DNA of 64,000 nt from Isurus oxyrinchus. Its lineage: Eukaryota. The stretch spans positions 29,946,001 to 30,010,000 of the forward strand of contig JANJGN010000012.1 of assembly GCA_026770705.1 (NCBI GenBank). Direction: 5' to 3'. The stretch's first letter is position 1. The number at the start of each line of letters is the position of its first letter. The notes beneath the pieces are model-generated. The model was not told the DNA's origin. It made no database searches and saw only the letters and a program-made list of their open reading frames with translations. The translations under genes and the position numbers were made by a program. Of the stretch, positions 1-64,000 are shown in pieces.

Positions 1-141
1 TGTTGTTTCAACATGGCAAGCTATGTTACTAATTTTCATCATCTGGGCCTGCTAAGAAGTTGATTATTTGGCCAGACTTTTAGAATGTTATTCCACATTT
101 TTTGTGTACTCCCTTAAGCCTATCACCTCTTTTAATAACAG

Positions 142-279
142 CAGCAACAGAAACTTCAACTGGAAGTACACAGACATCCACAGCAGCTGAAAGTACAATA
201 GCACAAACTACAGTGAGCTCCACTGAAACATCAATAACTGAAACAACAACAGCCACTACTCCATTCCCATCACCAAGTG
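142..279 (+). CDS. PTS exon, short A' type (138 nt, phase 1-1); also at ~16723, 23345, 27586
   Basis: taacag|CAGCAACA...CCAAGTG|gtgagt; (A)ATETSTGSTQTSTAAESTIAQ...PFPSPS. Confidence 0.85.
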
Positions 280-3200
280 GTGAGTATACGTAAGCACCCT
301 TTCCAGCTATAACCTTCTCAGACCAGTCAAATGCAGGAATGTATAAACACATAAAGAAATGTGAGAAATTATACTACTCGTGGATTGTTGGCTAGAATGA
401 TGCATTAGACAATTGTGCCCTCATGGCTTTTGGTGTTATACCCTCATTAAAACGAATTTCCGATACATTACTCAGGATCTTCCATTAATTATCGGATTTA
501 ACAAATCATAGAGCATAACCTTTGTGCAAAACCTTTGATATACTCTCCATGTTCACTGCTTACCTCGATAAAACATTGCCTGTTTGAATGTTGGCAGCAG
601 AAACATCGTCTTCAAGTACACAGACATCCATGGCAGCACTGACCTCTACGTTTGCTCCTCCCTCAACAAGTGGAACAGCATCAACATCCACCGCAGGCTC
701 TACTGAAGGGTCAACAACTGAAGAATCGACAGTCACTACGTCACTCCCAACAACAAGTGGTGAGAATACAAAAGCACTCTTTGCATGCATTCCATTATGA
801 ATTCATTCAAACTGCTGGGAGATAGACTCACGTACCCAAAAGCTATTGAAACTTTACAGTAGTATGTTGTTGTTATCATTTCTCAGAGTTAATGTTATGT
901 CAAATAGTCTTGGTACAATTCACAATTCCCGGCCATGTTATCAATCTTCATGTCTTTCAGCAAATGCGAGTTCCAATGAAATGTGGGGCACAAATTTCAT
1001 TCAAAGACTTTAATATATTGTTCCATCCATTTCAATTCCCTGAATAACATTGTATCCCTTCTTCAATCACAGCGGCACAAGCATCTGCAACAAATACACA
1101 GACGTCCACAGTAGCACTTACCTCTTCATCAGCTTCTGCCTCAACAAGTACAATAGCACCAACATCAACAGAAACATTGACATCCGAGGCATCGACAGTG
1201 ACAACCTCACTACCTTCATCAAGTAGTGAGTATCTGTGTGCTCTCTAATCAGTTCTAATATTCTGATTCCTTTCACCTACTGAATGTTGAGAAACAGACA
1301 ATGGACTTGGAAGAAAAGAATACAGCATGATGTTGGTCGTGAATATGCAGAGTAGAATAACATGCAAATGCCATTGTTTTGATTAATGCTTTGCAACATG
1401 GACATTCATTACTTGCTTTCCATATTTGACGAAGAAGGGAACTTTTCAGCTATGATATAATGATGTTGTTCCAGGCATTATGTATACCCATTCAGTCTAT
1501 ATTCAATTTTAATTATAGCAACTGCAGAAATTTCAACTGCAAGTACACAGACATCTACTACAGCACACGTCACCACATCAGCTCCTGCCTCAAGCAGTAC
1601 GATATCATCGAAAATTGCCGGGAGCTCTACAAAAGCATTGACAACTGCAGTAACATCAATCACAACATCAATCCCTTCAACAACTGGTGAGTATATGAGT
1701 GCTGTCTTAACAATTTGACCATCCCTGATCCTTCCAACCCACTCTGAGGTTTAAAAGACTAAATTGGAGACCTGTCAAACGATTCTCGCAAGGTGCTGGC
1801 TACAATTGCCCCAAATAGAATAATGCGCAGATGAGATTTGCTCAGTACTTTTATTTCAACATGGAGAGCTATGTTACTAATTTTCATGAGCTGGGAGTTC
1901 TAAGAAGTTGATTTCTTGGGCCACACTTTTAGAATGTTGTTCCAGGCTTTTTGAGTGCTCCCTTAAGCCAAACACCTCTTTTAATATCAGCAGCAACAGA
2001 AACTTCAACTACAAATACACAGACATCCACAGCAGCAGAAACCGCGACATCAGATTCTGTCTCAACAAGTGCAACAGTACAAACTACAGTGAGCTCAACT
2101 GAAACAACAATAACTGAAGCAACAACAGCCACCACTCCACTCCCATCAACACGTGGTAAGTATACAAAAGTACACTTTGCAGACATTACATTCTCAGTCC
2201 AGTCAAAATGCAGAAATGTACAAACACTTAAAGAAATGTGAGAAATTATTCTACTCGTGTATTGTTGGCTAGAATGATGCATTGGACAATCATACACTCG
2301 TGACATTTGGTGAAATGCCCTCAGTTAAAATGAGGCTACGATACATTACTCAGGAGCTTCCATTATTTCTCAGTTTTAACAAAATATAGAACATAACCTT
2401 TGTGCAAAAGCTTTGATATACTCCCCATGCTCTCTGCTTACCTCAATAAAACATTACCTGTTTCGACGATAGCAGCAGATACATCATCTTCAAGTACACA
2501 GACATCCACGACAGCACTGACCTCGACATCAGTTCCTGCCTCGACAAGTGGAACAGCATCACCATCCACCACAGGCTCTACTGAAGGGTCAACAACTGAA
2601 GAATCAACAATCACTACATCACTCCCAACAACAAGTGGTGAGAAAATGAAAGAACTCTTTGCTACCATTTCATTACGAATTCATTCAAACTGCTGCACGA
2701 TATAAACACGTACACATAAACTATTAACACATGACAGGAGTATTTTGTTGTGAGAATTTCCCAGTGTTCATGTTATGTGAAATTGTCTTGGAGCTCAAAT
2801 GCAGTCACAATTCCCGGCCACGTTATCTTTCTTAATGTCTTTCAGTAAATGCAAGTTCGAACAAAAAGTGTGGCATATAAATTGTTAAAAAAACTTAAAT
2901 ATATTGTTCCATTCTATTCAATTCCCTCAATAAGAATATATCCCTTTTTCAATCCCAGCAGCAGCAGTATCACCAACAAATAAACAGACATCCACCGCAG
3001 CACTGACCTCTACATCAGCTCCTGCCTCGACAACTGGAACAGCATCAACATCCACCGCAGGCTCTACTGAAGGGTCAATAACTGAAGAATCGACAATCAC
3101 TACGTCACTCCCAACAACAAGTGGTGAGAAAACGAAAGCACTCTTTGCATCCATTCCATTATGAATTCATTCAAAGTGCTGGGAGATAGAATCACGTATT

Positions 3201-6200
3201 CAAAAGCTGTTGATACACTACAGTAGTATGTTGTTGTTATAATTTCCCAGAGTCAATCTGATGTCAAACTATCTTGGTACTTTAACGCTGCCACAATTCC
3301 CGGCCACGTTATCTTTATTCGTGTCTTTCAGCAAATGCGAGTTCCAGCAAAATGTGGGGCACAAATTTCATTCAAAAACTTTAATATATTGTGTCATCAA
3401 TTTCATTTGCCTCAATAACATTGTATCCCTTCTTCAATCACAGCGGCACAAGCATCAACAACAAATACACAGACGTCCACAGTAGCACTGACCACTTCAT
3501 CAGCTCCTGCCACAACTAGTACAATAACAGAAACATCTACAGCAAGCTTGACAGAAACATCGACATCTGAGGCAACGACAGTGACAACCTCACTCCCATC
3601 ATCAAGTGGTGAGTAGCTGAGTGCCATCTATTCAGTTTTAATATTCTGTTTTCTTCCACCTACCAAATGTTGAGAAACAGACAATGGACTTGTAAGAAAA
3701 TAATATAGCATGAAGTTGGTCATGAATATGCAGAGTAGAATAACGTGCAAATGCCATTGTTTTGATTAATGCTTTGCAACATGGACATTCATTACTTGCT
3801 TTGCATATCTGACGAAGAAAGGAACTTTTCAGCTATGATAAAACGATGTTGTTCCAGGCAATATGTATACCCATTCAGTCTATCCTCAATTTTAATTATA
3901 GCAACTGCAGAACTTTCAACTGCAAGTACACAGACATCTACTACAGCACAAGTCACCACATCAGCTCCTGCCTCAAGGAGTACGATATCATCGACAACTG
4001 CCGGGAGCTCTACAAAAGCATCAACAACTGCAGTAACATCAATCACAACATCACTCCCTTCAACAAGTGGTGAGTATATGAGTGCTGTCTTAACACTTTG
4101 ACCATCAATAATCCGTCCAGCCCACTCTGAGGTTTAAAAGACTAAATTGGAGATCGATCAAACGATTCTAGCAAGGTGCTAGCTACAATTGCCACAAATA
4201 GAATAAGGCGCAGTTGAGATGTGCTCAGTACTTTTATTTCAACATCGTGAGCTATGTTACTAATTTTCATGATCTGGGAGTTCTAAGAAGTTGATTATTT
4301 GGGCCAGACTTTTAGAATGCTGTTCCATGCTTTTTGAGTGCTTCCTTAAGCCTAACACCTCTTTTCATAACAGCAGCAACAGGAACTTCAACTGCAAATA
4401 CACAGACATCCACAGCAGCAGAAACCTCGACATCAGCTTCTGTCTCAACAACTGCAACAGTAGAAACTCCAGTGAGCTCAACTGAAACAACAATAACTGA
4501 AGCAACAACAGCCACCACTCCACTCCCATTAACAAGTGGTGAGTATACAAACGTACACTTTGCAGACATTACATTCTCATTCCAGTCAAAATGCAGAAAT
4601 GTACAAACACTTAAAGAAATGTGAGAAATTATTATACTCATGTATTGTTGGCTAGAATGTTGCATTGGACAATCATACACTCGTGACATTTGGTGAAATA
4701 CCCTCAGTTAAAATGAGGCAACGATACATTACTCAGGAGCTTCCATTATTTCTCAGTTTTAACAAAACATAGAGCATAACCTTTGTGCAAAAGCTTTGAT
4801 ATACTCCCCATGCTCTCTGCTTACCTGTTTCGATGATAGCAGCAGATACATCATCTTCAAGTACACAGACATCCACGGCAGCACTGACCTCGACATCAGT
4901 TCCTGCCTCGACAAGTGGAACAGCATCACCATCCACCACAGGCTCTACTGAAGGGTCAACAACTGAAGAATCAACAATCACTACATCACTCCCAACAACA
5001 AGTGGTGAGAAAATGAAAGAACTCTTTGCTACCATTTCATTACGAATTCATTCAAACTGCTGCACGATATAAACACGTACACATAAACTATTAACACATG
5101 ACAGGAGTATCTTGTTGTGAGAATTTCCCAGTGTTCATGTTATGTGAAATGGTCTTGGAGCTCAAATGCAGTCACAATTCCCGGACACGTTATCTTTCTT
5201 AATGTCTTTCAGTAAATGCAAGTTCGAACAAAAAGTGTGGCATATGAATTGTTAAAAAATCGTTCATATTTTGTTCCATTCTTTTCAATTCCCTCAAAAA
5301 CATTATATCCCTTTTTCAGTCCCAGCAGCAGCAGTATCACCAACAAATAAACAGACATCCACCGCAGCACTGACCTCTACATCAGCTCCTGCCTCGACAA
5401 GTGGAACAGCGGCAACACTCACCGCAGAGTCTACTGAAGGGTCAACAACTGAAGAATCAACAATCACTACGTCACTCCCAAAAACAAGTGGTGAGAAAAC
5501 GAAAGCACTCTTTGCATCCATTCCATTATGAATTCATTCAAAGTTCTGGGAGATAGAATCACGTACTCAAAAGCTATTGATACATAACAGTATAATTTCC
5601 CACAGTTAATGTGATATCAAACTATCTTGGTAGTCTAATGCTGCCACAATTCCCGGCCACGTTATCTTTCTTCGTGTCTTTCAGCAAACGCGAGTTCCAA
5701 CGAAATGTGGGGCACAAATTTCGTTCAAAAACTTTAATATATTGTTCCATCCATTTCAATTCCCTGAATAACATTGTATCCCTTCTTCAATCACAGTGGC
5801 ACAAGCATCAACAACAAACACACAGACGTCCACAGTAGCACTGACCTCTTCTTCAGCTCCTGCATCAACAATTACAATAGCACCAACATCTACAGCAAGC
5901 TCGACAGAAGCATCGACATTTGAGGCAACAACAGTGACAACCTCACTCCCTTCATCAAGAAGTGAGTAGCCGTGTGCTCTCTAATCAGTTCTAATATTCT
6001 GATTCCTTTCACCTACTGAATGGTGAGAAACAGACAATGGACTTGTAAGAAAAGAATACAGCATGGAGTTGGTCATGAATTTGCAGAGTAGATTAACGTG
6101 CAAATGCCATTGTTTTGATTAATGCTTTGCAACATGGACATTCATTACTTGCTTTGCATATCTGACGAAGAAAGGAACTTTTCACCTATGATATAATGAT

Positions 6201-9200
6201 ATTGTTCCAGGCTTTACACTACCCATTCAGTCTATATCAATTTTAATTATAGCAACTGCAGAAATTACAACTGCAAGTACACAGACATCCACTACAGCAC
6301 AAGCCACCACATCAGCTCCTGCCTCAAGGAGTACGATATCATCGACAACAGCCGGGAGCTCTACAAAATCATCGACAACTGCAGTAACATCAGTCACAAC
6401 ATCAATCCCTTCAACAACTGGTGAGTATATGAGTGCTGTCTTAACACTTTGACCATCTCTGATCCTTCCAGCCCACTCTGAGGTTTAAAAGACTAAATTG
6501 GAGATCGGTCAAACGATTCTCGCAAGGTGCTGGCTACAATTGCCACAAATAGAATAATGCGCAGATGAGATTTGCTCAGTACTTTTATTTCAACATGGAG
6601 AGCTATGTTACTAATTTTCATGATCTGGGAGTTCTAAGAAGTTGCTTATTTGGGCCAGACTTTTAGAATGTTGTTCCATGCTTTTTGAGTGCTCCCTTAA
6701 GCCTAACACCTCTTTTAATAACAGCAGCAACAGAAACTTCAACTGCAAATACACAGACATCCACAGCAGCAGAAACCGTGACATCAGCTTCTGTCTCAAC
6801 AAGTGCAACAGTACAAACTACAGTGAGCTCAACTGAAACAACAATAACTGAAGCAACAACAGCCACCACTCCACTCCCATCAACAAGTGGTAAGTATACA
6901 AAAGTACACTTTGCAGACATTACATTCTCAGTCCAGTCAAAATGCAGAAATGTACAAACACTTAAAGAAATGTGAGAAATTATTCTACTCGTGTATTGTT
7001 GGCTAGAATGTTGCATTGGACAATCATACACTCGTGACATTTGGAGAAATACCCTCAGTTAAAATGAGGCTACGATACATTACTCAGGAGTTTCCATTAT
7101 TTCTCAGTTTTAACAAAACATAGAGCATAACCTTTGTGCAAAAGCTTTCATATACTCCCCATGCTCTCTGCTTACCTCAATAAAACATTACCTGTTTCGA
7201 CAATAGCAGCAAATACATCATCTTCAAGTACACAGACATCCACGGCAGCACTGACCTCGACATCAGTTCCTGCCTCAACAAGTGGAACAGCATCAACATC
7301 CACCACAGGCTCTACTGAAGGGTCAACAACTGAAGAATCGACAATCACTACATCACTCCCAACAACAAGTGGTGAGAAAATGAAAGAACTCTTTGCTACC
7401 ATTTCATTACGAATTCATTCAAACTGCTGCACGATATAAACACATACACATAAACTATTAACACATGGCAGGAGTATCTTGTTGTGAGAATTTCCCAGTG
7501 TTCATGTTATGTGAAATGGTCTTGGAGCTCAAATGCAGTCACAATTCCCGGACACGTTATCTTTCTTAGTGTCATTCAGTAAATGCGAGTTCCAACAAAA
7601 AGTGTGACATATAAATTGTTAAAAAATCTTTCATATTTTGTTCCATTCTTTTCAATTCCCTCAAAAACATTATATCCCTTTTTCAGTCCCAGCAGCAGCA
7701 GTATCACCAACAAATAAACAGACATCCACCGCAGCACTGACCTCTACATCAGCTCCTGCCTCGACAAGTGGAACAGCGTCAACACTCACCGCAGACTCTA
7801 CTGAAGGGTCAACAACTGCAGAATCGACAATCACTACGTCACTCCCAACAACAAGTGGTGAGAAAATGAAAGAACTCTTTGCTACCATTTCATTACGAAT
7901 TCATTCAAACTGCTGCACGATATAAACACGTACACATAAACTATTAACACATGACAGGAGTATCTTGTTGTGAGAATTTCCCAGTGTTCATGTTATGTGA
8001 AATGGTCTTGGAGCTCAAATGCAGTCACAATTCCCGGTCACGTTATCTTTCTTAATGTCTTTCAGTAAATGCAAGTTCGAACAAAAAGTGTGGCATATAA
8101 ATTGTTAAAAAATCGTTCATATTTTGTTCCATTCTTTTCAATTCCCTCAAAAACATTATATCCCTTTTTCAGTCCCAGCAGCAGCAGTATCACCAACAAA
8201 TAAACAGACATCCACCGCAGCACTGACCTCTACATCAGCTCCTGCCTCGACAAGTGGAACAGCGGCAACACTCACCGCAGAGTCTACTGAAGGGTCAACA
8301 ACTGAAGAATCAACAATCACTACGTCACTCCCAAAAACAAGTGGTGAGAAAACGAAAGCACTCTTTGCATCCATTCCATTATGAATTCATTCAAAGTTCT
8401 GGGAGATAGAATCACGTACTCAAAAGCTATTGATACATAACAGTATAATTTCCCACAGTTAATGTGATATCAAACTATCTTGGTAGTCTAATGCTGCCAC
8501 AATTCCCGGCCACGTTATCTTTCTTCGTGTCTTTCAGCAAACGCGAGTTCCAACGAAATGTGGGGCACAAATTTCGTTCAAAAACTTTAATATATTGTTC
8601 CATCCATTTCAATTCCCTGAATAACATTGTATCCCTTCTTCAATCACAGTGGCACAAGCATCAACAACAAACACACAGACGTCCACAGTAGCACTGACCT
8701 CTTCTTCAGCTCCTGCATCAACAATTACAATAGCACCAACATCTACAGCAAGCTCGACAGAAGCATCGACATTTGAGGCAACAACAGTGACAACCTCACT
8801 CCCTTCATCAAGAAGTGAGTAGCCGTGTGCTCTCTAATCAGTTCTAATATTCTGATTCCTTTCACCTACTGAATGGTGAGAAACAGACAATGGACTTGTA
8901 AGAAAAGAATACAGCATGGAGTTGGTCATGAATTTGCAGAGTAGATTAACGTGCAAATGCCATTGTTTTGATTAATGCTTTGCAACATGGACATTCATTA
9001 CTTGCTTTGCATATCTGACGAAGAAAGGAACTTTTCACCTATGATATAATGATATTGTTCCAGGCTTTACACTACCCATTCAGTCTATATCAATTTTAAT
9101 TATAGCAACTGCAGAAATTACAACTGCAAGTACACAGACATCCACTACAGCACAAGCCACCACATCAGCTCCTGCCTCAAGGAGTACGATATCATCGACA

Positions 9201-12200
9201 ACAGCCGGGAGCTCTACAAAATCATCGACAACTGCAGTAACATCAGTCACAACATCAATCCCTTCAACAACTGGTGAGTATATGAGTGCTGTCTTAACAC
9301 TTTGACCATCTCTGATCCTTCCAGCCCACTCTGAGGTTTAAAAGACTAAATTGGAGATCGGTCAAACGATTCTCGCAAGGTGCTGGCTACAATTGCCACA
9401 AATAGAATAATGCGCAGATGAGATTTGCTCAGTACTTTTATTTCAACATGGAGAGCTATGTTACTAATTTTCATGATCTGGGAGTTCTAAGAAGTTGCTT
9501 ATTTGGGCCAGACTTTTAGAATGTTGTTCCATGCTTTTTGAGTGCTCCCTTAAGCCTAACACCTCTTTGAATAACAGCAGCAACAGAAACTTCAACTGCA
9601 AATACACAGACATCCACAGCAGCAGAAACCGTGACATCAGCTTCTGTCTCAACAAGTGCAACAGTACAAACTACAGTGAGCTCAACTGAAACAACAATAA
9701 CTGAAGCAACAACAGCCACCACTCCACTCCCATCAGCAAGTGGTAAGTATACAAAAGTACACTTTGCAGACATTACATTCTCAGTCCAGTCAAAATGCAG
9801 AAATGTACAAACACTTAAAGAAATGTGAGAAATTATTCTACTCGTGTATTGTTGGCTAGAATGTTGCATTGGACAATCATACACTCGTGACATTTGGTGA
9901 AATACCCTCAGTTAAAATGAGGCTACGATACATTACTCAGGAGTTTCCATTATTTCTCAGTTTTAACAAAACATAGAGCATAACCTTTGTGCAAAAGCTT
10001 TGATATACTCCCCATGCTCTCTGCTTACCTCAGTAAAACATTACCTGTTTCGACAATAGCAGCAAATACATCATCTTCAAGTACACAGACATCCACGGCA
10101 GCACTGACCTCGACATCAGTTCCTGCCTCGACAAGTGGAACAGCATCAACATCCACCATAGGCTCTACTGAAGGGTCAACAACTGAAGAATCGACAATCA
10201 CTACATCACTCCCAACAACAAGTGGTGAGAAAATGAAAGAACTCTTTGCTACCATTTCATTACGAATTCATTCAAACTGCTGCACGATATAAACACGTAC
10301 ACATAAACTATTAACACATGGCAGGAGTATCTTGTTGTGAGAATTTCCCAGTGTTCATGTTATGTGAAATGGTCTTGGAGCTCAAATGCAGTCACAATTC
10401 CCGGCCACGTTATCTTTCTTAATGTCTTTCAGTAAATGCGAGTTCCAACAAAAAGTGTGACATATAAATTGTTAAAAAATCGTTCATATTTTGTTCCATT
10501 CTTTTCAATTCCCTCAAAAATATTATATCCCTTTTTCAGTCCCAGCAGCAGCAGTATCACCAACAAATAAACAGACATCCACCGCAGCACTGACCTCTAC
10601 ATCAGCTCCTGCCTCGACAAGTGGAACAGCGGCAACACTCACCGCAGACTCTATTGAAGGGTCAACAACTGAAGAATCAACAATCACTACGTCACTCCCA
10701 AAAACAAGTGGTGAGAAAACGAAAGCACTCTTTGCATCCATTCCATTATGAATTCATTCAAAGTTCTGGGAGATAGAATCACGTACTCAAAAGCTATTGA
10801 TACATTATAGTAGTATGCTGTTGTTATAATTTCCCACAGTTAATGTGATATCAAACTATCTTGGTAGTCTAACGCTGCCACAATTCCCGGCCACATTATC
10901 TTTCTTCGTGTCTTTCAGCAAACGCGAGTTCCAACGAAATGTGGGGCACAAATTTCGTTCAAAAACTTTAATATATTGTTCCATCCATTTCAATTCCCTG
11001 AATAACATTGTATCCCTTCTTCAATCACAGTGGTACAAGCATCAACAACAAACACACAGACGACCACAGTAGCGCTGACCTCTTCATCAGCTCCTGCATC
11101 AACAATTACAATTGCACCAACATCTACAGCAAGCTCGACAGAAGCATCGACATCTGAGGCAACGACAGTGACAACCTCACTCCCTTCATCAAGAAGTGAG
11201 TAGCCGTGTGCTCTCTAATCAGTTCTAATATTCTGATTCCTTTCACCTACTGAATGTTGAGAAACAGACAATGGACTTGTAAGAAAAGAATACAGCATGG
11301 AGTTGGTCATGAATTTGCAGAGTAGAATAACGTGCAAATGCCATTGTTTTGATTAATGCTTTGCAACATGGACATTCATTACTTGCTTTGCATATCTGAC
11401 GAAGAAAGGAACTTTTCACCTATGATATAATGATATTGTTCCAGGCTTTACACTACCCATTCAGTCTATATTCAATTTTAATTGTAGCAACTGCAGAAAT
11501 TTCAACTGCAAGTACACAGACATCCACTTCAGCACAAGCCACCTCATCAGCTCCTGCCTCAAGGAGTACGATATCATCGACAACTGCCGGGAGCTCTACA
11601 AAAGCATCGACAACTGCAGTAACATCAATCACAACATCAATCCCTTCAACAACTGGTGAGTATATGAGTGCTGTCTTAACACTTTGACCATCTCTGATCT
11701 TTCCAGCCCACTCTGAGGTTTAAAAGACTAAATTGGAGATCGGTCAAACGATTCTCGCAAGGTGCTGGCTACAATTGCCACAAATAGAATAATGCGCAGA
11801 TGAGATTTGCTCAGTACTTTTATTTCAACATGGAGAGCTATGTTACTAATTTTCATGATCTGGGAGTTCTAAGAAGTTGCTTATTTGGGCCAGACTTTTA
11901 GAATGTTGTTCCATGCTTTTTGAGTGCTCCCTTAAGCCTAACACCTCTTTTAATAACAGCAGCAACAGAAACTTCAACTGCAAATACACAGACATCCACA
12001 GCAGCAGAAACCGTGACATCAGCTTCTGTCTCAACAAGTGCAACAGTACAAACTCCAGTGAGCTCAACTGAAACAACAATAACTGAAGCAACAACAGCCA
12101 CCACTCCACTCCCATCAACAAGTGGTAAGTATACAAAAGTACACTTTGCAGACATTACATTCTCAGTCCAGTCAAAATGCAGAAATGTACAAACACTTAA

Positions 12201-24200: not shown

Positions 24201-27200
24201 GTTCAAAAGCTTTAATATATTGTTCCATCCATTTCAATTCCCTGAATAACATTGTATCCCTTCTTCAATCACAGCGGCACAAGCATCAACAACAAACACA
24301 CAGACATCCACAGTAGCACTGACCTCTTCATCAGCTCCTGCATCAACAATTACAATAGCACCAACATCTACAGCAAGCTCGACAGAAGCATCGACATCTG
24401 AGGCAACGACAGTGACAACCTCACTCCCTTCATCAAGAAGTGAGTAGCCGTGTGCTCTCTAATCAGTTCTAATATTCTGATTCCTTTCACCTACTGAATG
24501 TTGAGAAACAGACAATGGACTTGTAAGAAAAGAATACAGCATGGAGTTGGTCATGAATTTGCAGAGTAGAATAACGTGCAAATGCCATTGTTTTGATTAA
24601 TGCTGTGCAACATGGACATTCATTACTTGCTTTGCATATCTGACGAAGAAAGGAACTTTTCAGCTATGATATAATGATGTTGTTCCAGGCTTTACACTAC
24701 CCATTCAGTCTATATTCAATTTTAATTATAGCAACTGCAGAAATTTCAACTGCAAGTACACAGACATCCACTACAGCACAAGCCACCACATCAGCTCCTG
24801 CCTCAAGGAGTACGATATCATCGACAACTGCCGGGAGCTCTACAAAAGCATCTAAAACTGCAGTAACATCAATCACAACATCAATCCCTTCAACAACTGG
24901 TGAGTATATGAGTGCTGTCTTAACACTTTGACCATCTCTGATCCTTCCAGCCCACTCTGAGGTTTAAAAGACTAAATTGGAGATCGGTCAAACGATTCTC
25001 GCAAGGTGCTGGCTACAACTGCCCCAAATAGAATAATGCGCAGATGAGATTTGCTCAGTACTTTTATTTCAATATGGAGAGCTATGTTACTAATTTTCAT
25101 GATCTGGGAGTTCTAAGATGTTGCTTATTTGGGCCAGACTTTTAGAATGTTGTTCCATGCTTTTTGAGTGCTCCCTTAAGCCTAACACCTCTTTTAATAA
25201 CAGCAGCAACAGAAACTTCAACTGCAAATACACAGACATCCACAGCAGCAGAAACCGTGACATCAGCTTCTGTCTCAACAAGTGCAACAGTACAAACTAC
25301 AGTGAGCTCAACTGAAACAACAATAACTGAAGCAACAACAGCCACCACTCCGCTCCCATCAACACGTGGTAAGTATACAAAAGTACACTTTGCATACATT
25401 ACATTCTCAGTCCAGTCAAAATGCAGAAATGTACAAACACTTAAAGAAATGTGAGAAATTATTCTACTCGTGTATTGTTGGCTAGAATGATGCATTGGAC
25501 AATCATACACTCGTGACATTTGGTGAAATGCCCTCAGTTAAAATGAGGCTACGATACATTACTCAGGAGCTTCCATTATTTCTCAGTTTGTACAAATCAT
25601 AGAGCATAATCTTTGTGCAAACGCTTTGATATACTCCCCATGCTCTCTGCTTACCTCAATAAAACATTGCCTGTTTCGACGATAGCAGCAGATACATCAT
25701 CTTCAAGTACACAGACGTCCACGGCAGCACTGACCTCTACATCAGTTCCTGCCTCGACAAGTGGAACAGCATCAACATCCACCACAGGCTCTACTGAAGG
25801 GTCAACAACTGAAGAATCGACAATCACTACATCACTCCCAACAAAAAGTGGTGAGAAAATGAAAGAACTCTTTGCTACCATTTCATTACGAATTCATTCA
25901 AACTGCTGCACGATATAAACACGTACACATAAACTATTAACATATGACAGGAGTATGTTGTTTTGAGAATTTCCTACTGTTCATGTTATGTGAAATGGTC
26001 TTGCAGCTTAAATGCAGTCACAATTCCCGGCCACGTTATCTTTCTTAGTGTCTTTCAGTAAATGCGAGTTCCAACAATAAGTGTGACATATAAATTGTTA
26101 AAAAATCTTTCATATTTTGTTCCATTCTTTTCAATTCCCTCAAAAACATTATATCCCTTTTTCAGTCCCAGCAGCAGCAGTATCACCAACAAATAAACAG
26201 ACATCCACCGCAGCACTGACCTCTACATCAGCTCCTGCCTCGACAAGTGGAACAGCGTCAACACTCACCGCAGACTCTACTGAAGGGTCAACAACTGAAG
26301 AATTGACAATCACTACGTCACTCCCAACAACAAGTGGTGAGAAAACGAAAGCACTCTTTGCATCCATTCCATTATGAATTCATTCAAAGTTCTGGGAGAT
26401 AGAATCACGTACTCAAAAGCTATTGATACATTACAGTAGTATGCTGTTGTTATAATTTCCCACAGTTAATGTGATATCAAACTATCTTGGTAGTCTAACG
26501 CTGCCACAATTCCTGGCCACGTTATCTTTCTTCGTGTCTTTCAGCAAACGCGAGTTCCAACGAAAAGTGCGGCACAAATTTCGTTTAAAAACTTTAATAT
26601 ATTGTGCCATCCATTTCATTTCCCTCAATAACATTGTATCCTTTCTTCAATCACAGTGGCACAAGCATCAACAACAAATACACAGACGTCCACAGTAGCA
26701 CTGTCCGCTTCATCAGCTCCTTCCTCAACAAGTAAAATAGCACAACCATCTACAGCAAGCTCGACAGAAACATCGACATCCGTGGCAACGACAGTGACAA
26801 CCTCACCCCCGTCATCAAGTGGTGAGTAGCTGAGTGCCATCTATTCAGGTTTAACATTCTGTTTTCTTTCACCTACTGAATGTTGAGAAACAGACAATGG
26901 ACTTGTAAGAAAATAATATAGCATGAAGTTGGTCATGAATATGCAGAGTAGAATAACGTGCAAATGCCATTGTTTTGCTTAATGCTTTGCAACATGGACA
27001 TTCATTACTTGCTTTGCATATCTGACGAAGAAGGGAACTTTTCAGCTATGATATAACGATGTTTTTCCAGGCATTATGTATACCCATTCAGTCTATTCTC
27101 AATTTTAATTATAGCAACTGCAGAAATTTCAACTGCAAGTACACAGACATCCACTACAGCACAAGCCATCACATCAGCTCCTGCCTCAAGTAGTACAATA

Positions 27201-30200
27201 TCATTGACAACTGCCGGGAGCTCTACAAAAGCATCGACAACTGCAGTAACATCAATCACAACATCACTCCCTTCAACAACTGGTGAGTATATGAGTGCTG
27301 TCTTAACACTTTGACCATCACTAATCCTTCCAGCCCACTCTGAGGTTTAAAAGACTAAATTGGAGATCGGTCAAACAATTCTAGCAAGGTGCTGGCTACA
27401 ATTGCCCCAAGTAGTATAATGCGCAAATGATATTTGCTCACTACTGTTGTTTCAACATCGCAAGCTATGTTACTAATTTTCATGATCTGGGAGTTCTAAG
27501 AAGTTGATTACTTGGCCAGACTTTTAGAATGTTATTCCACACTTTTTGTGTACTCCCTTAAGCCTATCACCTATTTTAATAACAGCAGCAACAGAAACTT
27601 CAACTGCAAACACACAGACATCCACAGCAGCTGAAAGTACAATAGCACAAACTACAGTGAGCTCCACTGAAACATCAATAACTGAAACAACAACAGCCAC
27701 TACTCCATTCCCATCACCAAGTGGTGAGTATACGTAAGCACCCTTTCCAGCTATAAACTTCTCAGACCAGTCAAAACGCAGGAATGTATAAACACAAAGG
27801 AATGTGAGAAATTATTCCACTCGTATATTGTTGGCTAGAATGATGCATTGCACAATCGTGCTTTCATGGCTTTTGGTGTAATACCCTCAATAAAACGAGG
27901 TTCTGATATATTACTCAGGATCTTCCATTAATTTTCAGTTTTAACAAATCATAGAGCATGAACTATGTGCAAAAGCATTGATATACTATCCATGTTCTCT
28001 GCTTACCTCGATAAAACATTGCCTGTTTGATTGTTGGCAGCAGAAACATCGTCTTCAAGTACACAAACATTGACGGCAGCATTGACCTCTACGTCTGCTC
28101 CTCCCTCAACAAGTGGAACAGCACCAACATCCACCACAGGCTCTACTGAAGGGTCAATAACTGAAGAATCGACAATCACTACGTCCCTCCCAACAACAAG
28201 TGGTGAGAAAGCAAAAGCATTCTTTGCATCCATTCCATTATGAATTCATTCGGACTGCTGGGAGATAGAATCACGTACCCAAAATCTATTCAAACTTTAC
28301 AGTAGTATGTTGTTGTTATAATTTCCCACAGTTAATGTTCTGTCAAATAGTCTTGGTACAATTCCCAATTCCCAGCCACGTTATCTTTCTTCGTGTCTTT
28401 CAGCAAATGCGAGTTCCAACGAAAAGTGGGGCACAAATTTCGTTCAAAAGCTTTAATATATTGTTCCATCCATTTCAATTCCCTGAATAACATTGTACCC
28501 CTTCTTCAATCACAGTGGCACAAGCATCAACAACAAACACACAGATATCCACAGTAGCACTGACATCTTCATCAGCTCCTGCATCAACAAATACAATAGC
28601 ACGAACATCTACAGCAAGCTCGACAGAAGCATCGACATCTGAGGCAACGACAGTGACAACCTCACTCCCTTCATCAAGTAGTGAGTAGCCGTGTGCTCTC
28701 TAATCAGTTCTAATATTCTGATTCCTTTCACCTACTGAATGTTGAGAAACAGACAATGGACTTGTAAGAAAAGAATACAGCATGGAGTTGGTCATGAATT
28801 TGCAGAGTAGAATAACGTGCAAATGCCATTGTTTTGATTAATGCTTTGCAACATGGACATTCATTACTTGCTTTGCATATCTGACGAAGAAAGGAACTTT
28901 TCAGCTATGATATAATGATGTTGTTCCAGGCTTTACACTACCCATTTAGTCTATATTCAATTTTAATTATAGCAACTGCAGAAATTTCAACTGCAAGTAC
29001 ACAGACATCCACTACAGCACAAGCCACCACATCAGCTCCTGCCTCAAGGAGTACGATATCATCGACAACTGCCGGGAGCTCTACAAAAGCATCGACAACG
29101 GCAGTAACATCAATCACAACATCAATCCCTTCAACAACTGGTGAGTATATGAGTGCTGTCTTAACACTTTGACCATCTCTGATCCTTCCAGCCCACTCTG
29201 AGGTTTAAAAGACTAAATTGGAGATCGGTCAAACGATTCTCGCAAGGTGCTGGCTACAATTGCCACAAATAGAATAATGCGCAGATGAGATTTGCTCAGT
29301 ACTTTTATTTCAACATTGAGAGCTATGTTACTAATTTTCATGATTTGGGAGTTCTAAGAAGTTGCTTATTTGGGCCAGACTTTTAGAATGTTGTTCCATG
29401 CTTTTTGAGTGCTCCCTTAAGCCTAACACCTCTTTTAATAACAGCAGCAACAGAAACTTCAACTGCAAATACACAGACATCCACAGCAGCAGAAACCGTG
29501 ACATCAGCTTCTGTCTCAACAGGTGCAACAGTACAAACTACAGTGAGCTCAACTGAAACAACAATAACTGAAGCAACAACAGCCACCACTCCACTCCCAT
29601 CAACAAGTGGTAAGTATACAAAAGTACACTTTGCAGACATTACATTCTCAGTCCAGTCAAAATGCAGAAATGTACAAACACTTAAAGAAATGTGAGAAAT
29701 TATTCTACTCGTGTATTGTTGGCTAGGATGATGCATTGGACAATCATACACTCGTGACATTTAGTGAAATACCCTCAGTTAAAATGAGGCTACGATACAT
29801 TACTCAGGAGCTTCCATTATTTCTCAGTTTTAACAAAACATAGAGCATAACCTTTGTGCAAAAGCTTTGATATACTCCCCATGCTCTCTGCTTACCTCAA
29901 TAAAACATTACCTGTTTCGACGATAGCAGCAGATACATCATCTTCAAATACACAGACATCCACGGCAGCACTGACCTCGACATCAGTTCCTGCCTCGACA
30001 AGTGGAACAGCATCACCATCCACCACAGGCTCTACTGAAGGGTCAACAACTGAAGAATCGACAATCACTACATCACTCCCAACAACAAGTGGTGAGAAAA
30101 TGAAAGAACTCTTTGCTACCATTTCATTACGAATTCATTCAAACTGCTGCACGATATAAACACGTACACTTAAACTATTAACACATGACAGGAGTATCTT

Positions 30201-33200: not shown

Positions 33201-36200
33201 TTAATATATTGTTCCATCCATTTCAATTCCCTGAATAACAATGTATCCCTTCTTCAATCGCAGCGGCACAAGCATCTGCAACAAATACACAGACGTCCAC
33301 AGTAGCACTGACCTCTTCATCAGCTTCTGACTCAACAAGTACAATAGCACCAACATCTACAGCAAGCTCGACAGAAACAATGACATCCGAGGCAACGACA
33401 GTGACAACCTCACTCCCTTCATCAAGTAGTGAGTATCTGTGTGCTCTCTAATCAGTTCTACTATTCTGATTCCTTTCACCTACTGAATGTTGAGAAACAG
33501 ACAATGGACTTGTAAGAAAAGTATACAGCATGAAGTTGGTCATGAATATGCAGAGTAAAATAATGTTCAAATGCCATTATTTTGATTAATGCTGTGCAAC
33601 ATGGACATTCATTACTTGCTTTCCATATCTGACGAAGAAGGAAACTTTTCAGTTATGATATAATGATGTTGTTCCAGGCATTATGTATACCCATTCAGTC
33701 TATATTCAATTTTAATTATAGCAACTGCAGAAATTTCAACTGCAAGTCCACAGACATCCACTACAGCACAAGTCACCACATCAGCTCCTGCCTCGAGCAG
33801 TACGATATCATCGACAACTGCCGGGAGCTCTACAAAAGCATCGACAACTGCAGTAACATCAATCACAACATCAATCCCTTCAACAACTGGTGAGTATATG
33901 AGTGCTGTCTTAACACTTTGACCATCTCTGATCCTTCCAGCCCACTCTGAGGTTTAAAAGACTAAATTGGAGATCTGTCAAACGATTCTCGCATGGTGCT
34001 GGCTACAATTGCCACAAATAGAATAATGCGCAGATGAGATTTGCTCAGTACTTTTATTTCAACATGGAGAGCTATGTTACTAATTTTCATGATCTGGGAG
34101 TTCAAAGAAGTTGATTTCTTGGGCCAGACTTTTAGAATGTTGTTCCAGGCTTTTTGAGTGCTCCCATAAGCCTACCACCTCTTTTAATAACAGCAGCAAC
34201 AGAAATTTCAACCGCAAATACACAGACATCCACAGCAGCAGAAACCATGACATCAGCTTCTGTCTCAACAAGTGCAACAGTACAAACTACAGTGAGCTCA
34301 ACTGAAACAACAATAACTGAAGCAACAACAGCCACCACTCCACTCCCATCAACAAGTGGTGAGTATACGAAAGCACGCTTTGCAGACATTACATTCTCAG
34401 TCCAGTGAAAACGCAGAAATGTACAAACACATAAAGAAATGTGAGAAATTGTTCTACTCGTGTATTGTTGGCTAGAATGATGCATTGGATAATCATACAC
34501 TCATGACATTTTGTGAAATACCCTCAGTTAAAATGGGGCTACGATACGTTACTCAGGAGCTTCCATTATTTCTCAGTTTGTACAAATCATAGAGCATAAC
34601 CTTTGTGCAAACGCTTTGATATACTCCCCATGCTCTCCGCTTACCTCAATAAAACATTGCCTGTTTCGACGATAGCAGCAGATACATCATCTTCAAGTAC
34701 ACAGACGTCCACGGCAGCACTGACCTCTACATCAGTTCCTGCCTCGACAAGTGGAACAGCATCAACATCCACTGCAGGCTCTACTGAAGGGTCAACAACT
34801 GAAGAATCGACAATCACTACGTCCCTCCCAACAACAAGTGGTGAGAAAACAAAAGAACTCTTTGCTACCATTTCATTACGAATTCATTCAAACTGCTGCA
34901 TGATATAAACACGTACACATAAACTATTAACATATGACAGGAGTATGTTGTTTTGAGAATTTCCCAGTGTTCATGTTATGTGAAATGGTCTTGCAGCTTA
35001 AATGCAGTCACAATTCCCGGCCACGTTATCTTTCTTAGTGTCTTTCAGTAAATACGAGTTCCAACAAAAAGTGTGGCATATAAATTGTTAAAAAAACTTA
35101 AATATATTGTTCCATTCTTTTCAATTCCCTAAATAAGAATATATCCCTTTTTCAATCCCAGCAGCAGCAGTATCACCAACAAATGAACAGACATCCGCCG
35201 CAGCACTGACCTCTACATCAGCTCCTGCCTTGACAACTGGAACAGCATCAACATCCACCACAGGCTCTACTGAAGGGTCAACAACTGAAGAATCGACAAT
35301 CACTACGTCCCTCCCAACAACAAGTGGTTAGAAAACAAAAGCACTCTTTGCATCCATTCCATTATGAATTCATTCAAAGTGCTGGGAGATAGAATCACGT
35401 ATTCAAAAGCTATTGATACACTACAGTAGTATGTTGTTGTTAAAATTTCCCAGAGTCGATGTGATGTCAAACTATCTTGGTAGTCTAATGCTGCCACAAT
35501 TCCCGGCCACGTTATCTTTCTTCGTGTGTTTCAGCAAATGCGAGTTCCAACAAAAAGTGGGGAATAAATTTCGTTCGAAACCTTTAATATATTGTGCCAT
35601 CCATTTCATTTGCCTCAATAACATTGTATCCCTTCTTTAATCACAGCGGCACAAGCATCAACAACAAATACACAGACTTCCACAGTAGCACTGACCGCTT
35701 CATCAGCTCCTGCTACAACAAGTACAATAACACAAACATCTACAGCAAGCTTGACAGAAACATCGACATCTGAGGAAACGACAGTGACAACCTCACTCCC
35801 TTCATCAAGTGGTGAGTAGCTGAGTGCCATCTATTCAGTTTTAACATTCTGTTTTCTTCCACCTACCGAATGTTGAGAAGCAGACAATGGACTTGTAAGA
35901 AAATAATATAGCGTGAAGTTGGTCATGAAAATGCAGAGTGCAATACCGTGCAAATGCCATTGTTTTGATTAATGCTTTGCAACATGGACATTCATTACTT
36001 GCTTTGCATATCTGACGAAGAAGGGAAATTTTCAGCTCTGATATAACGATGTTGTTCCAGGCATTATGTATACCCATTCAGTCTATCCTCAATTTTAATT
36101 ATAGCAACTGCAGAAATTTCAACTGCAAGTACACAGACATCCACTACAGCACAAGTCACCACATCAGCTCCTGCCTCAAGCAGTACGATATCATCAAAAA

Positions 36201-39200
36201 CTGCCGGGAGCTCTACAAAAGCATCGACAACTGCAGTAACATCAGTCACAACATCAATCCCTTCAACAACTGGTGAGTATATGAGTGCTGTCTTAACACT
36301 TTGACCATCTCTGATCCTTCCAGCCCACTCTGAGGTTTAAAAGACTAAATTGGAGATCTGTCAAACGATTCTCGCAAGGTGCTGGCTACAACTGCCCCAA
36401 ATAGAATAATGCGCAGATGAGATTTGCTCAGTACTTTTATTTCAACATGGAGAGCTATGTTACTAATTTTCATGATCTGGGAGTTCTAAGAAGTTGATTT
36501 CTTGGGCCAGACTTTTAGAATGTTGTTCCATGCTTTTTGAGTGCTCCCATAAGCTTACCACCTCTTTTAATAACAGCAGCAACAGAAATTTCAACTGCAA
36601 ATACACAGACATCCACAGCAGCAGAAACCGTGACATCAGCTTCTGTCTCAACAAGTGCAACAGTACAAACTACAGTGAGCTCAACTGAAACAACAATAAC
36701 AGAAGCAACAACAGCCACCACTCCACTCCCATCAACAAGTGGTGAGTATACGAAAGCACGCTTTGCAGACATTACATTCTCAGTCCAGTGAAAATGCAGA
36801 AATGTACAAACACATAAAGAAATGTGAGAAATTGTTCTACTCGTGTATTGTTGGCTAGAATGATGCATTGGTAATCATACACTCGTGACATTTGGTGAAA
36901 TACCCTCAGTTAAAATGAGGCTACGATACATTACTCAGGAGCTTCCATTATTTCTCAGTTTTAACAAATTATAGAGCATAACCTTTGTGCAAAAGCTTTG
37001 ATATACTCCCCATGCTCTCTGCTTACTTCAATAAAACATTGCCTGTTTCGACGATAGCAGCAAATACATCATCTTCTAGTACCCAGACATCCACGGCAGC
37101 ACTGACCTCTACATCAGTTCCTGCCTCGACAAGTGGAACAGCATCAACATCCACTGCAGGCTCTACTGAAGGGTCAACAACTGAAGAATCGACAATCACT
37201 ACGTCCCTCCCAACAACAAGTGATGAGAAAACAAAAGAACTCTTTGCTACCATTTCATTACGAATTCATTCAAACTGCTGCATGATATAAACACGTACAC
37301 ATAAACTATTAACATATGACAGGAGTATGTTGTTTTGAGAATTTCCCAGTGTTCATGTTATGTGAAATGGTCTTGCAGCTTAAATGCAGTCACAATTCCC
37401 GGCCACGTTATCATTCTTAGTGTCTTTCAGTAAATGCGAGTTCCAACAAAAAGTGGGGCATATAAATTGTTAAAAAAACTTTAATATATTGTTCCATTCT
37501 TTTCAATTCCCTCAATAAGAATATATCCCTTTTTCAATCCCAGCAGCAGCAGTATCACCAACAAATAAACAGACATCTGCCGCAGCACTGACCTCTACAT
37601 CAGCTCCTGCCTCGACAACTGGAACAGCATCAACATCCACCGCAGGCTCTACTGACGGGTCAATAACTGAAGAATCGACAATCACTACGTCACTCCCAAC
37701 AACAAGTGGTGAGAAAACGAAAGCACTCTTTGCATCCATTCCATTATGAATTCATTCAAAGTGCTGGGAGATAGAATCACGTATTCAAAAGCTATTGATA
37801 CACTACAGTAGTATGTTGTTGTTATAATTTCCCAGAGTCGATGTGATGTCAAATAGTCTTGGTACAATTCACAATTCCCGGCCACGTTATCTTTCTTCGT
37901 GTCTTTCAGCAAATGCGAGTTCCAACGAAAAGTGGGGCACAAATTTCGTTCAAAGACTTTAATATATTGTTCCATCCATTTCAATTCCCTCAATAAGAAT
38001 ATATCCCTTTTTCAGTCCCAGCAGCAGCAGTATCACCAACAAATAAACAGACATCCACTGCAGCACTGACCTCTACATCAGCTCCTGCCTCGACAAGTGG
38101 AACAGCATCAACATCCACTGCAGGCTCTACAGAAGGGTCAACAACTGAAGAATCGAAAATCCCTGCATCACTCCCAACAACAAGTGGTGAGCATATGAAA
38201 GCACAATTTGCAGCCATTCCACTTTGAATCCTTTCAGTCTGCTGGAAGGTATACAACAAGTATCAAAGGATTACAGGAATATGTTGATGCCTATAATTTC
38301 CCAGGGTTAATTATATTTAAAATTATCTTGGTGCTCTGATGCTGTTACAATTCAAGTCCATGTTATCTTTCTCAGTATTGTCATTCTCTCTGAGTTTGTT
38401 CAAAATTTAGAGCATAATTTACGTGCATAAACCTTATTATATTGTTCCATCCTTTTTAATTTCCCTTAAACAAAGCATCATCATTCAAAGCATCATCATA
38501 CAAATACAGACGTCCACAGCAGCAGGAGCGTCTACATCAGCTCCTGCCTCAACAAGTACAATAGCACCAACATCTACAGCAAGCTTGACAGAAGCATCAA
38601 CATCTGAGGCAAAAACTGTGACAACCTCACTCCCTTCAACAAGTGATGGGTACTGAGTGCTCTCTACTCAGTTGTAACATGCTGATTTCTTTTGCATACT
38701 GCAATTTTACAAATAAATAATGGAAATGTAAGAAAATAATATAGCATTATGTTGGCTATGAATATGCAGAGTAGAATAATCTGCAAATGTCATTTTGTGA
38801 TTAGTGCTTTCCAACATGGCCATTAATTGGTTGCATTGCATCACAGGCAAAGGTGACTTTTCAGCTCTAATGTTTCAATGTTGTTCCAGGCATGTTTACA
38901 CATCACATTAAGTCTATCTTCTATTTTTAGTAACAGCAGCAGCAGAACAGTTGACTGCAAATATACAGACCTCCATTGCAGCAGGAGCCTCTACATCAGC
39001 TCCTGCCTCAACAAGTACGATAGCATTGAGAACTGCAGTGATATTAATCACAACGTCACTCCCTTCGACAAATGGTGAGTGTATAAGTGCTGTCTTAAGA
39101 TTTCGACCATTTTTAATCATTCCAGCCCACTCCGAGGTTTAAAAGCCGAAATTGAAAATATATCAAATGATTATAGATTATAGCATGACGCTGGCCTAAG

Positions 39201-63517: not shown

Positions 63518-64000
63518 GTAAATGCTCATTTTACTCCAATATCTATTTAATATTATTTGCACTGTAAACAGTTTAAAACTTTATTTCAAAGGCATTGTGT
63601 CTCCAGCTGCTCTGTCATCCTGTCAACACCTCCCTCGCAAATGATGGTCTGTCCTTCCTAATCACTTGACTCACCTTACTCTAGTCTACTGGCTGTCTGC
63701 CACTCTTGATCAGTTGGCTTCATCATCCTTGGTCTGCTGCCTCTCACTCACTCTCATTCACTCCTGCTTTTTGATTCCAGCTTGCTATTGTTCTGCTGGC
63801 CCCTGCTTATTCATCGTTAAATCAAAGAGATAACAAAGACAAAACACACATTATTGTACTTTCCATTTAGCATTTCAGAAGTTCAATTTCTTACAAAATG
63901 TGGAACATCTTATCCAAGCCATCACGTTTCTGACTCTTATTTAATTTACAACAAACTCATGTAATTAATTGCAATTTTAAAGGCAAGTATTTTAACCAGT

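Follow-up and report, generated by a model that had tools for sequence, protein, structure and literature searches.

A higher-order array of threonine- and serine-rich exon-intron units in a predicted shark MUC16-like gene

Several described systems come close to the locus studied here. In chicken Muc13, each proline/threonine/serine-rich (PTS) repeat has an exon of its own, a design proposed to be ancestral in vertebrates and to allow length control by splicing (PMC1552070). Human MUC16 repeats consist of 5-exon, ~1900-bp units with an S/T/P-rich tail, and its amino-terminal domain takes 9 exons for about 12,000 amino acids (PMC3431878); its variable number tandem repeat (VNTR) is nearly invariant in length, and human mucin VNTRs degenerate at array edges (PMC13345508). 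The accessible part of a vertebrate mucin survey (PMC4948705) makes no mention of MUC16. In NBPF/Olduvai, exon+intron monomers form 3-mer higher-order repeats (HORs) within a coding gene and have been compared with alpha satellite, for which the same source quotes monomers 20-40% apart and HOR copies less than 5% apart (PMC9584774). Argiope MaSp2 carries homogenised, alternating introns and occurs as variant ensembles (PMC9779670). Here we analyse a stretch of 64,000 nucleotides from the shark Isurus oxyrinchus (GenBank assembly GCA_026770705.1, contig JANJGN010000012.1, positions 29,946,001 to 30,010,000, forward strand; hereafter the window), the left 38 kb of which (GC 40%) is a tandem array of exon-like PTS units with their introns, predicted to encode the stalk of a MUC16-like membrane mucin.

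The locus shares with MUC16/CA125 and with elasmobranch mucin-16-like proteins tandem SEA domains (the closest structures are MUC16 SEA), an N-terminal Ser/Thr region and a SEA domain spread over three exons plus a short one. It differs from human MUC16, however, in that small exons, over 81 in number and separated by homogenised introns, share out the S/T region, and in that PTS exon blocks also lie between SEA modules. As in chicken (and zebrafish) Muc13, one exon encodes one PTS repeat, but Muc13 has at least 12 near-identical repeats of 20 amino acids and a single SEA domain, whereas the shark array has at least 81 units of 54 amino acids, in four to five classes with a higher-order arrangement, in a multi-SEA gene. 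NBPF shows a similar pattern of divergence (monomers about 18% apart, HOR copies about 1-2%, variant HORs lacking a monomer), but its monomers are 1.6 kb long, have two exons, fall into three types and are unrelated in sequence; those of the shark are 480 bp long with one exon, and build 4-, 5- and 6-mers and nested block copies. Argiope MaSp2 is alike in its repetitive exon-intron pairs and in gain or loss of whole units, but it encodes silk, has several sub-units per exon and gained its introns recently, whereas the shark unit and its intron are old.

Centromeric arrays expand in layers, with a young centre and older flanks. A first-pass annotation of the window, made from the sequence alone, had likened the array to alpha satellite, and the numbers fit the comparison: monomers are 24-40% apart, HOR copies 0.2-10%, and a young centre lies between older flanks. 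The array is, however, 38 kb and not megabases long, it is constrained to an open frame, and its top level comprises only two to three copies; the likeness is one of organisation and implies neither sequence relation nor a centromere role. A full-text literature search, which left most subscription papers outside its reach, returned no paper that deals with an array of MUC16 exons in sharks or with mucin exons arranged as HORs. The array is thus not new in kind; it is a large variant of architectures already known, and one that has apparently gone undescribed.

Units, classes and block copies

Searching the window with a nucleotide profile made from 12 of its exons gave 99 rows. After a spurious match at 46668 and one minus-strand match were dropped, 81 exon-like units lay between 142 and 38186, four older ones further on up to 40015, one at 41519 and 11 within 50767-55824. 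The count of 81 is a lower bound, the array extending beyond the left end of the window, which contains no N bases. All 81 units are 138-171 bp long, a multiple of three, with phase 1 at both ends, so that the reading frame is preserved whatever number of units is added, removed or skipped; the introns between them measure ~290-320 bp. Together the units comprise 13,344 nt, or 4,448 codons, in 64 distinct DNA versions, and are made up of Thr (33%) and Ser (24%; 57% with Thr), Ala (14%) and Pro (5%); Cys and stop codons are absent throughout the 4,448. AG acceptors stand at homologous places in 81/81 units, mostly within in-frame NAGNAG runs, and GT donors in 80/81; splice signals thus bound each frame-symmetric PTS repeat, one repeat per exon as in Muc13. 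Most units carry tandem 3-nt alternatives at both splice sites. Four array exon peptides matched no Pfam family, and a structured-RNA reading was dropped, there being no Rfam match in the window.

Clustering and segmentation returned exactly the string of unit sizes given in the first-pass annotation (4,5,5,6,5,5,5,4,5,5,4,5,4,5,5,5). The 5-mers, A-B-C-D-E, span 2351-2383 bp; the variant 4-mers, A'-B'-D-E without C, are found as reported at 142, 16723, 23345 and 27586 (1849-1859 bp); and a single 6-mer, A-B-C-C-D-E, of 2853 bp starts at 6725. Exact 14-mers recur at lags peaking at 6622, 4241, 10863, 2381/2382, 2853 and 27454 bp, and also at 486 and 1859 bp, in agreement with the periodicities near 480, 1860, 2381, 4241 and 6622 bp expected from the first-pass annotation; Tandem Repeats Finder, with a period limit of 500, reported only partial 486-bp arrays. 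Class order is unscrambled in all 16 complete units. Identity is 0.91-0.98 within a class and 0.60-0.76 (exon) or 0.55-0.60 (intron) between deep classes, and 5-mer copies are 0.2-8% apart. Monomers are thus far more diverged than the n-mer copies, as in a HOR of the Willard type.

In a maximum-likelihood tree (95 units taken, 6 exact duplicates dropped to leave 89; 53612 and 41519 left out), A, A', B, B', D and E each formed one side of a starred branch. Class C required two changes, since the unit at 38016 falls basal to B+C. All nine groups together needed 10 changes against a shuffled mean of 60.7, and 0/200 shuffles were as low; the monomers do group by class, that is, by position in the unit. 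The five classes first proposed are separable, but they represent four deep lineages, A+A', B+B'+C, D and E, with B and C one young pair. Sub-types of D and E run across unit boundaries.

For all 21 class pairs, intron alignments scored above those of shuffled controls (z 3.2-46, with 30 shuffles per pair), and an alignment of 19 introns, including those of old end units and of the downstream block, ran end to end. Alignment over the full length among classes, end units and downstream block argues for common descent, and supports the proposal that one ancestral exon+intron unit lies behind all monomers. The short intron motifs put forward as shared among classes are each present in some of them: TAGAATAA in D (16/16) and E (16/16) at three mismatches, CACAATTCCCGG only in B, B', C and one end unit, and ATATATTGTTCCAT mainly in B, B' and C; none reaches class A. 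By eye, no motif in the 19 introns was conserved above its surroundings.

Chimeric monomers mark the points of crossover. Monomer 7687, at once the extra monomer of the 6-mer and the junction of the 2853-bp tandem duplication, carries the C state at 58/58 diagnostic sites as far as exon position 66 and the B state at 41/41 from position 186 onwards, and the duplicated pair shows no mismatch over about 1.5 kb. B' looks like its reciprocal B/C chimera: all four copies are B upstream and, downstream, C at 27-31 of 41 sites and B at 6-7 (at 16723, the upstream intron is B-type and the downstream intron C-type, with 28/41 sites C and 6 B). Class C itself is D-like on its acceptor side and B-like in its body, B and C bodies being 85% alike in the exon.

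The centre of the array reads PQR PQR QR, where P and Q are 5-mers and R is a 4-mer. The two PQR copies differ by 0.31%, with 20 substitutions and no indel in 6.5 kb, and the QR pair by 1.6%. Behind the 6622-bp lag is a match 10.45 kb long and 98% identical, which covers some two and a half periods and has a core of two copies; the 4241-bp lag reflects two adjacent copies plus one; and at a lag of 27,454 bp, units at 2-4.7 kb match units at 29.4-32 kb, 1.6% apart. Differences between blocks form a graded series of 0, 0.3, 1.6, 3, 5-6 and 10%. The 4241- and 6622-bp super-units each have only two to three copies, no fixed multi-HOR unit is iterated many times, and the flanks follow neither length. 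Of the three-level hierarchy first claimed, the monomer and HOR levels stand; the third level is two or three recent block copies, not an iterated super-HOR.

Monomers and 5-mers might be real while one or more super-units (the 6622-bp pair, the 2853-bp pair) are assembly duplications, for example haplotypes placed in tandem. The perfect stretch of the 2853-bp pair and the 0.31% between the 6622-bp copies speak for such an error, and allelic copies too would differ by substitutions. However, none of the 20 differences looks like an indel error: every one is a substitution, in most cases a transition, and is either private to both copies or also present in other units. In addition, the edges of the matches fade gradually, the window contains no N, and the block differences are graded. 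We regard this explanation as unlikely. Sequencing contigs bear on it from both sides. Of 24 listed sequencing runs, four, which come from 4 studies and carry three organism labels, were compared as Logan contigs of DNA type with one 4-mer only, and run X1, which may be the window's own source, was not taken as independent. No RNA run was among those listed, which carries no information about expression. All 4 runs cover 30/30 bins of the 4-mer, introns included, with 129-202 contigs each that spread from <90% to >99% identity; coverage of the introns by diverged contigs indicates that a multi-copy exon-intron array exists outside this assembly. The contigs are short and none spans a unit, the best public run shares 0.56 of the sampled words, both of which leave room for assembly duplication, and 0/12 listed joints, which bear on 4-mer against 5-mer adjacency in other animals, were clean. 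In X1 and X6, single contigs reach about 14 and 11 times, respectively, the depth of that run's long contigs and hint at collapsed identical copies, with no copy number implied.

SEA modules and relatives in other sharks

Downstream of the array on the same strand lie two SEA modules (Table 1), 77% identical in DNA. The regions 44597-48967 and 56317-63999 form an old tandem duplication of the SEA module, 77% identical including introns. Single SEA exons matched Pfam SEA below its cut-off, and exon 1 alone gave only chance-level PDB matches. For SEA exon 3, the first structure matches were human MUC16 SEA domains (8gkl, 7sa9, 8vm1; E 2e-5 to 3e-4), and in a homologue search 9/24 candidates passed, all from sharks and rays, 8 of them named mucin-16-like, a name given automatically by the source databases. 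The SEA exon boundaries presumably match those of the human MUC16 repeat.

Exons 2 and 3 of SEA module 2 are identical to white-shark XP_041061456.1 at 22/22 and 56/56 residues. This model, which continues module 2, scores 439 bits for SEA in 8 stretches, has MUC16 as its first structure matches and shows, by eye, a hydrophobic C-terminal stretch. Its first 31 residues correspond to window 57091-57183 and begin inside an intron, so the model lacks the array; the start probably results from the GC donor of module 2 exon 1. That donor (57026-57032) reads AG/GCAAGT, a textbook GC-AG site. Multiple tandem SEA domains of MUC16 type, two of them in the window, with a PTS region of 4,448 codons upstream on the same strand, are the arrangement of a MUC16-like membrane mucin, and suggest that the array is the N-terminal mucin part of a shark MUC16-like SEA gene.

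A profile of window exon peptides detected the ~54-residue unit 8 times in Heptranchias, 8 times in Rhincodon P0008 and twice in Mustelus, with best-domain scores of 77, 78 and 93 against maxima of 45, 33 and 38 in 50 composition-matched shuffles each. Among the 9 proteins searched, P0001 was weaker and 4 had no domain above 15 bits. The Heptranchias model has PTS repeats, a unique PTS exon and SEA, the same order as the window, and its stretch matching the exon at 41519 (26/37) stands directly before the first SEA domain. In the Mustelus protein the order is SEA, two PTS units, SEA. Heptranchias units 1, 3 and 5 are 72-80% alike and 54-61% identical to 2, 6 and 7, with unit 4 intermediate, which hints at a weak a-b alternation; gene models may skip exons. 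Window classes match Heptranchias units at 35-65% identity, with no clear best class and no one-to-one mapping. In Rhincodon P0008, residues 70-394, 4/7 units resemble one another and reach up to 71% identity with class D of the window, which hints at an old origin of the D type.

Constraint, turnover and competing explanations

We counted variants as distinct alleles against the class consensus. Among 177 exon variants, 56 were synonymous, 121 non-synonymous and 0 stop, where the intron mutation spectrum predicted 54.5, 133 and 6.2, respectively. The absence of stop alleles against 5.6-6.2 expected has P of about 0.002-0.004, and this in exons where a single step would turn 1037/4367 codons into a stop. 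In density, the variants of exons and introns are alike. Internal indels, counted donor to donor and hence independent of acceptor choice, were multiples of three in 3/3 cases in exons and 0/16 in introns (Fisher P 0.001). Selection thus acts on the open frame and on the absence of stops, while amino acids drift near neutrality; the coding constraint claimed at first holds for frame and stop codons only. In a mucin domain, a kept frame with drifting residues is expected.

We are confident, short of certainty, that the array is the repeated Thr/Ser-rich exon+intron unit of a shark MUC16-like gene, which probably contributes by splicing to a glycosylated mucin stalk and is probably turned over by unequal crossing-over together with gene conversion. 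An ancient ~480-bp unit would have diversified into A, B, D and E. Class C would have arisen when a second B-type body came to lie behind a D-type acceptor, giving the 5-mer, and, on the simplest reading, misaligned B/C exchange would then have removed one unit (the 4-mer, with B') or added one (the 6-mer, with 7687). Larger out-of-register exchanges would have copied blocks of 2853, 4241, 6622 and 27,454 bp. Selection would hold the frame open and stop-free, the position of Thr, Ser or Ala hardly mattering, and the product would be a membrane mucin with >4,400 stalk residues ahead of tandem SEA domains. The array is well explained by such ordinary tandem-repeat dynamics inside a mucin gene.

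Several points weigh against this reading or limit its numbers. We infer the inclusion of 81 exons in mRNA from the sequence; the donor at 37222 is AT, with an in-frame GT 3 nt upstream, and that at 35326 is weak. White-shark model XP_041061456.1 has no array, and a homologue search with the C exon passed 0 of 945 candidates, a weak negative given low complexity and a 2000-amino-acid ceiling. Allele counts are not independent events, and the intron rate was taken without 3/15 class-C introns while the exons of these stayed in. The ratio akin to non-synonymous over synonymous rates (dN/dS) came to 0.89 for variants inside the classes (P 0.46 when compared with neutrality) and, pooled over pairs of 12 lineage representatives that are not independent, 0.84, so that amino-acid selection was detected neither within classes nor between lineages. 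Among the indel rows displayed (15 more exist), one contig each of runs X5 and X6 has a 1-base deletion at 18200 inside exon E. B' may be a deletion chimera, or it may stem from an ancestor that was never duplicated, with rates of change that were uneven.

The order of classes could instead be under selection, either because it spaces glycans or charges periodically (B/C and A being rich in Glu, and E bearing Lys/Arg) or because it serves as a code for regulated splicing, an idea suggested by the unscrambled order of the 16 complete units and by the weak a-b alternation in Heptranchias. Yet no selection is needed for unequal exchange in register to keep the order, the amino acids are drifting, sub-types of D and E extend from one unit into the next, and the window classes have no one-to-one counterparts in Heptranchias; we find a selected order improbable. 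Since the open frame is selected and residue placement hardly so, the HOR order is most probably a side effect of how the units were duplicated and does not act as a code. Still less probable is a mostly untranslated intronic satellite made from mucin exons, with few units spliced and clean frames left by recent homogenisation of intact founders: although dN/dS near 1, like exon and intron variant densities, dead units at the ends and in the second block, and a public model without the array all suit it, the stop expectation uses variants younger than the class founders and 0 of about 6 were seen, indels keep multiples of three in exons and not in introns, and homologous units are present in protein models of three other sharks.

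Under the exon-array reading, the locus displays every step in the birth of a HOR, from monomer divergence through chimeras, 4/5/6-mer variants and block copies to stranded ends, and its introns provide a built-in neutral control beside the exons, making it a test bed for HOR formation with and without selection. It also supports multi-exon PTS domains as an old vertebrate design and extends that proposal to a MUC16-like gene, of which the public white-shark model misses the whole stalk. A wider idea, which we offer tentatively, is that the shark MUC16 stalk is a cassette-exon satellite: an ancient 54-codon exon-intron unit at the site of the single S/T linker exon of the mammalian MUC16 repeat might have expanded, independently in each lineage, into HOR arrays of at least 80 exons. 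Stalk length would then be set twice, through the number of copies in the germ line and through exons skipped in frame in each cell, and public models would miss >4,400 residues.

Array ends and downstream features

Table 1. Positions of the array, its main sub-structures and the downstream features in the window
Feature	Position	Strand	Remarks
Homogenised array of 81 phase 1-1 PTS exon-like units with introns	1..38186	+	continues past left window edge
Old 4-mer A'-B'-D-E	142..1990	+	6.6% from three younger 4-mers
2853-bp tandem duplication that would have produced the 6-mer	5050..10600	+	0 mismatches over 5300-6550
C/B chimeric monomer	7687..8172	+	diagnostic sites
6622-bp super-unit (5+5+4), two copies	11960..25203	+	20 substitutions, no indel over 6.5 kb
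4-mer with A' and B'	16723..18581	+	A' has a 27-nt in-frame deletion
4241-bp super-unit (5+4), two adjacent copies	20963..29444	+	about 1.6% apart
Old single copies in array order	38016..40015	+	nearest-neighbour identity 0.62-0.76
C-like old unit	38016	+	basal to B+C in tree
D-like old unit	38476	+	acceptor out of frame, donor GT lost
E-like old unit	38931	+	
A-like old unit	39375	+	
D-like old unit	39863	+	
Unique phase 1-1 PTS exon	41519..41662	+	70% over 37 aa against Heptranchias XP_067824340.1
SEA module 1, four exons	45091..49028	+	SEA exons 45091-45251 (phase 1-0), 45337-45404 (0-2), 48328-48491 (2-1), short 49002-49028 (1-1)
Second PTS block, 11 exon-like units, old, unhomogenised	50767..55824	+	profile and tree
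SEA module 2	56866..63517	+	exons 56866-57026 (GC donor), 57115-57182, 63348-63517

Nearest-neighbour identity is mostly 0.98-1.00 in the centre of the array and 0.90-0.99 in its flanks, and falls to its lowest values at 38-40 kb (0.62-0.76). In the tree, the end units branch basally within B/C, D, E and A, following array order. The 'decaying end' of the first-pass annotation is right in that old, diverged units are present there; they are, however, old single copies of the same lineages, stranded after expansion from the middle, and not decayed young ones. The unit at 38476 is likely dead.

Defects also occur in the second PTS block, where an in-frame stop interrupts 51697, the usual donor is missing from 51144 and 53612 is a fragment; the unit at 53305 groups with class A. 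This block and the SEA module may have been copied together as one piece. A GT to AT donor change recurs in three unrelated units (at 37222, near 38628 and near 51330), and in each of them another GT lies in frame three bases further upstream.

A minus-strand fragment of a long interspersed nuclear element (LINE), which we take to be CR1/L2-like, occupies 41820-44283 in the intron before SEA module 1 and holds a 453-codon open frame in which Pfam RVT_1, the reverse-transcriptase domain, matches with E 1e-26. At 40713-41071 lies a 360-bp piece of the same fragment, rearranged so that one part is inverted and another direct (93-96%). The second intron of SEA module 2 contains a GC-rich 3.6-kb insertion (58500-62200), transposon-like by appearance only, whose open frames had no Pfam match; it carries long minus-strand open frames at 60212-61081 and 61481-62128 and a purine-rich minisatellite at 59277-59561.

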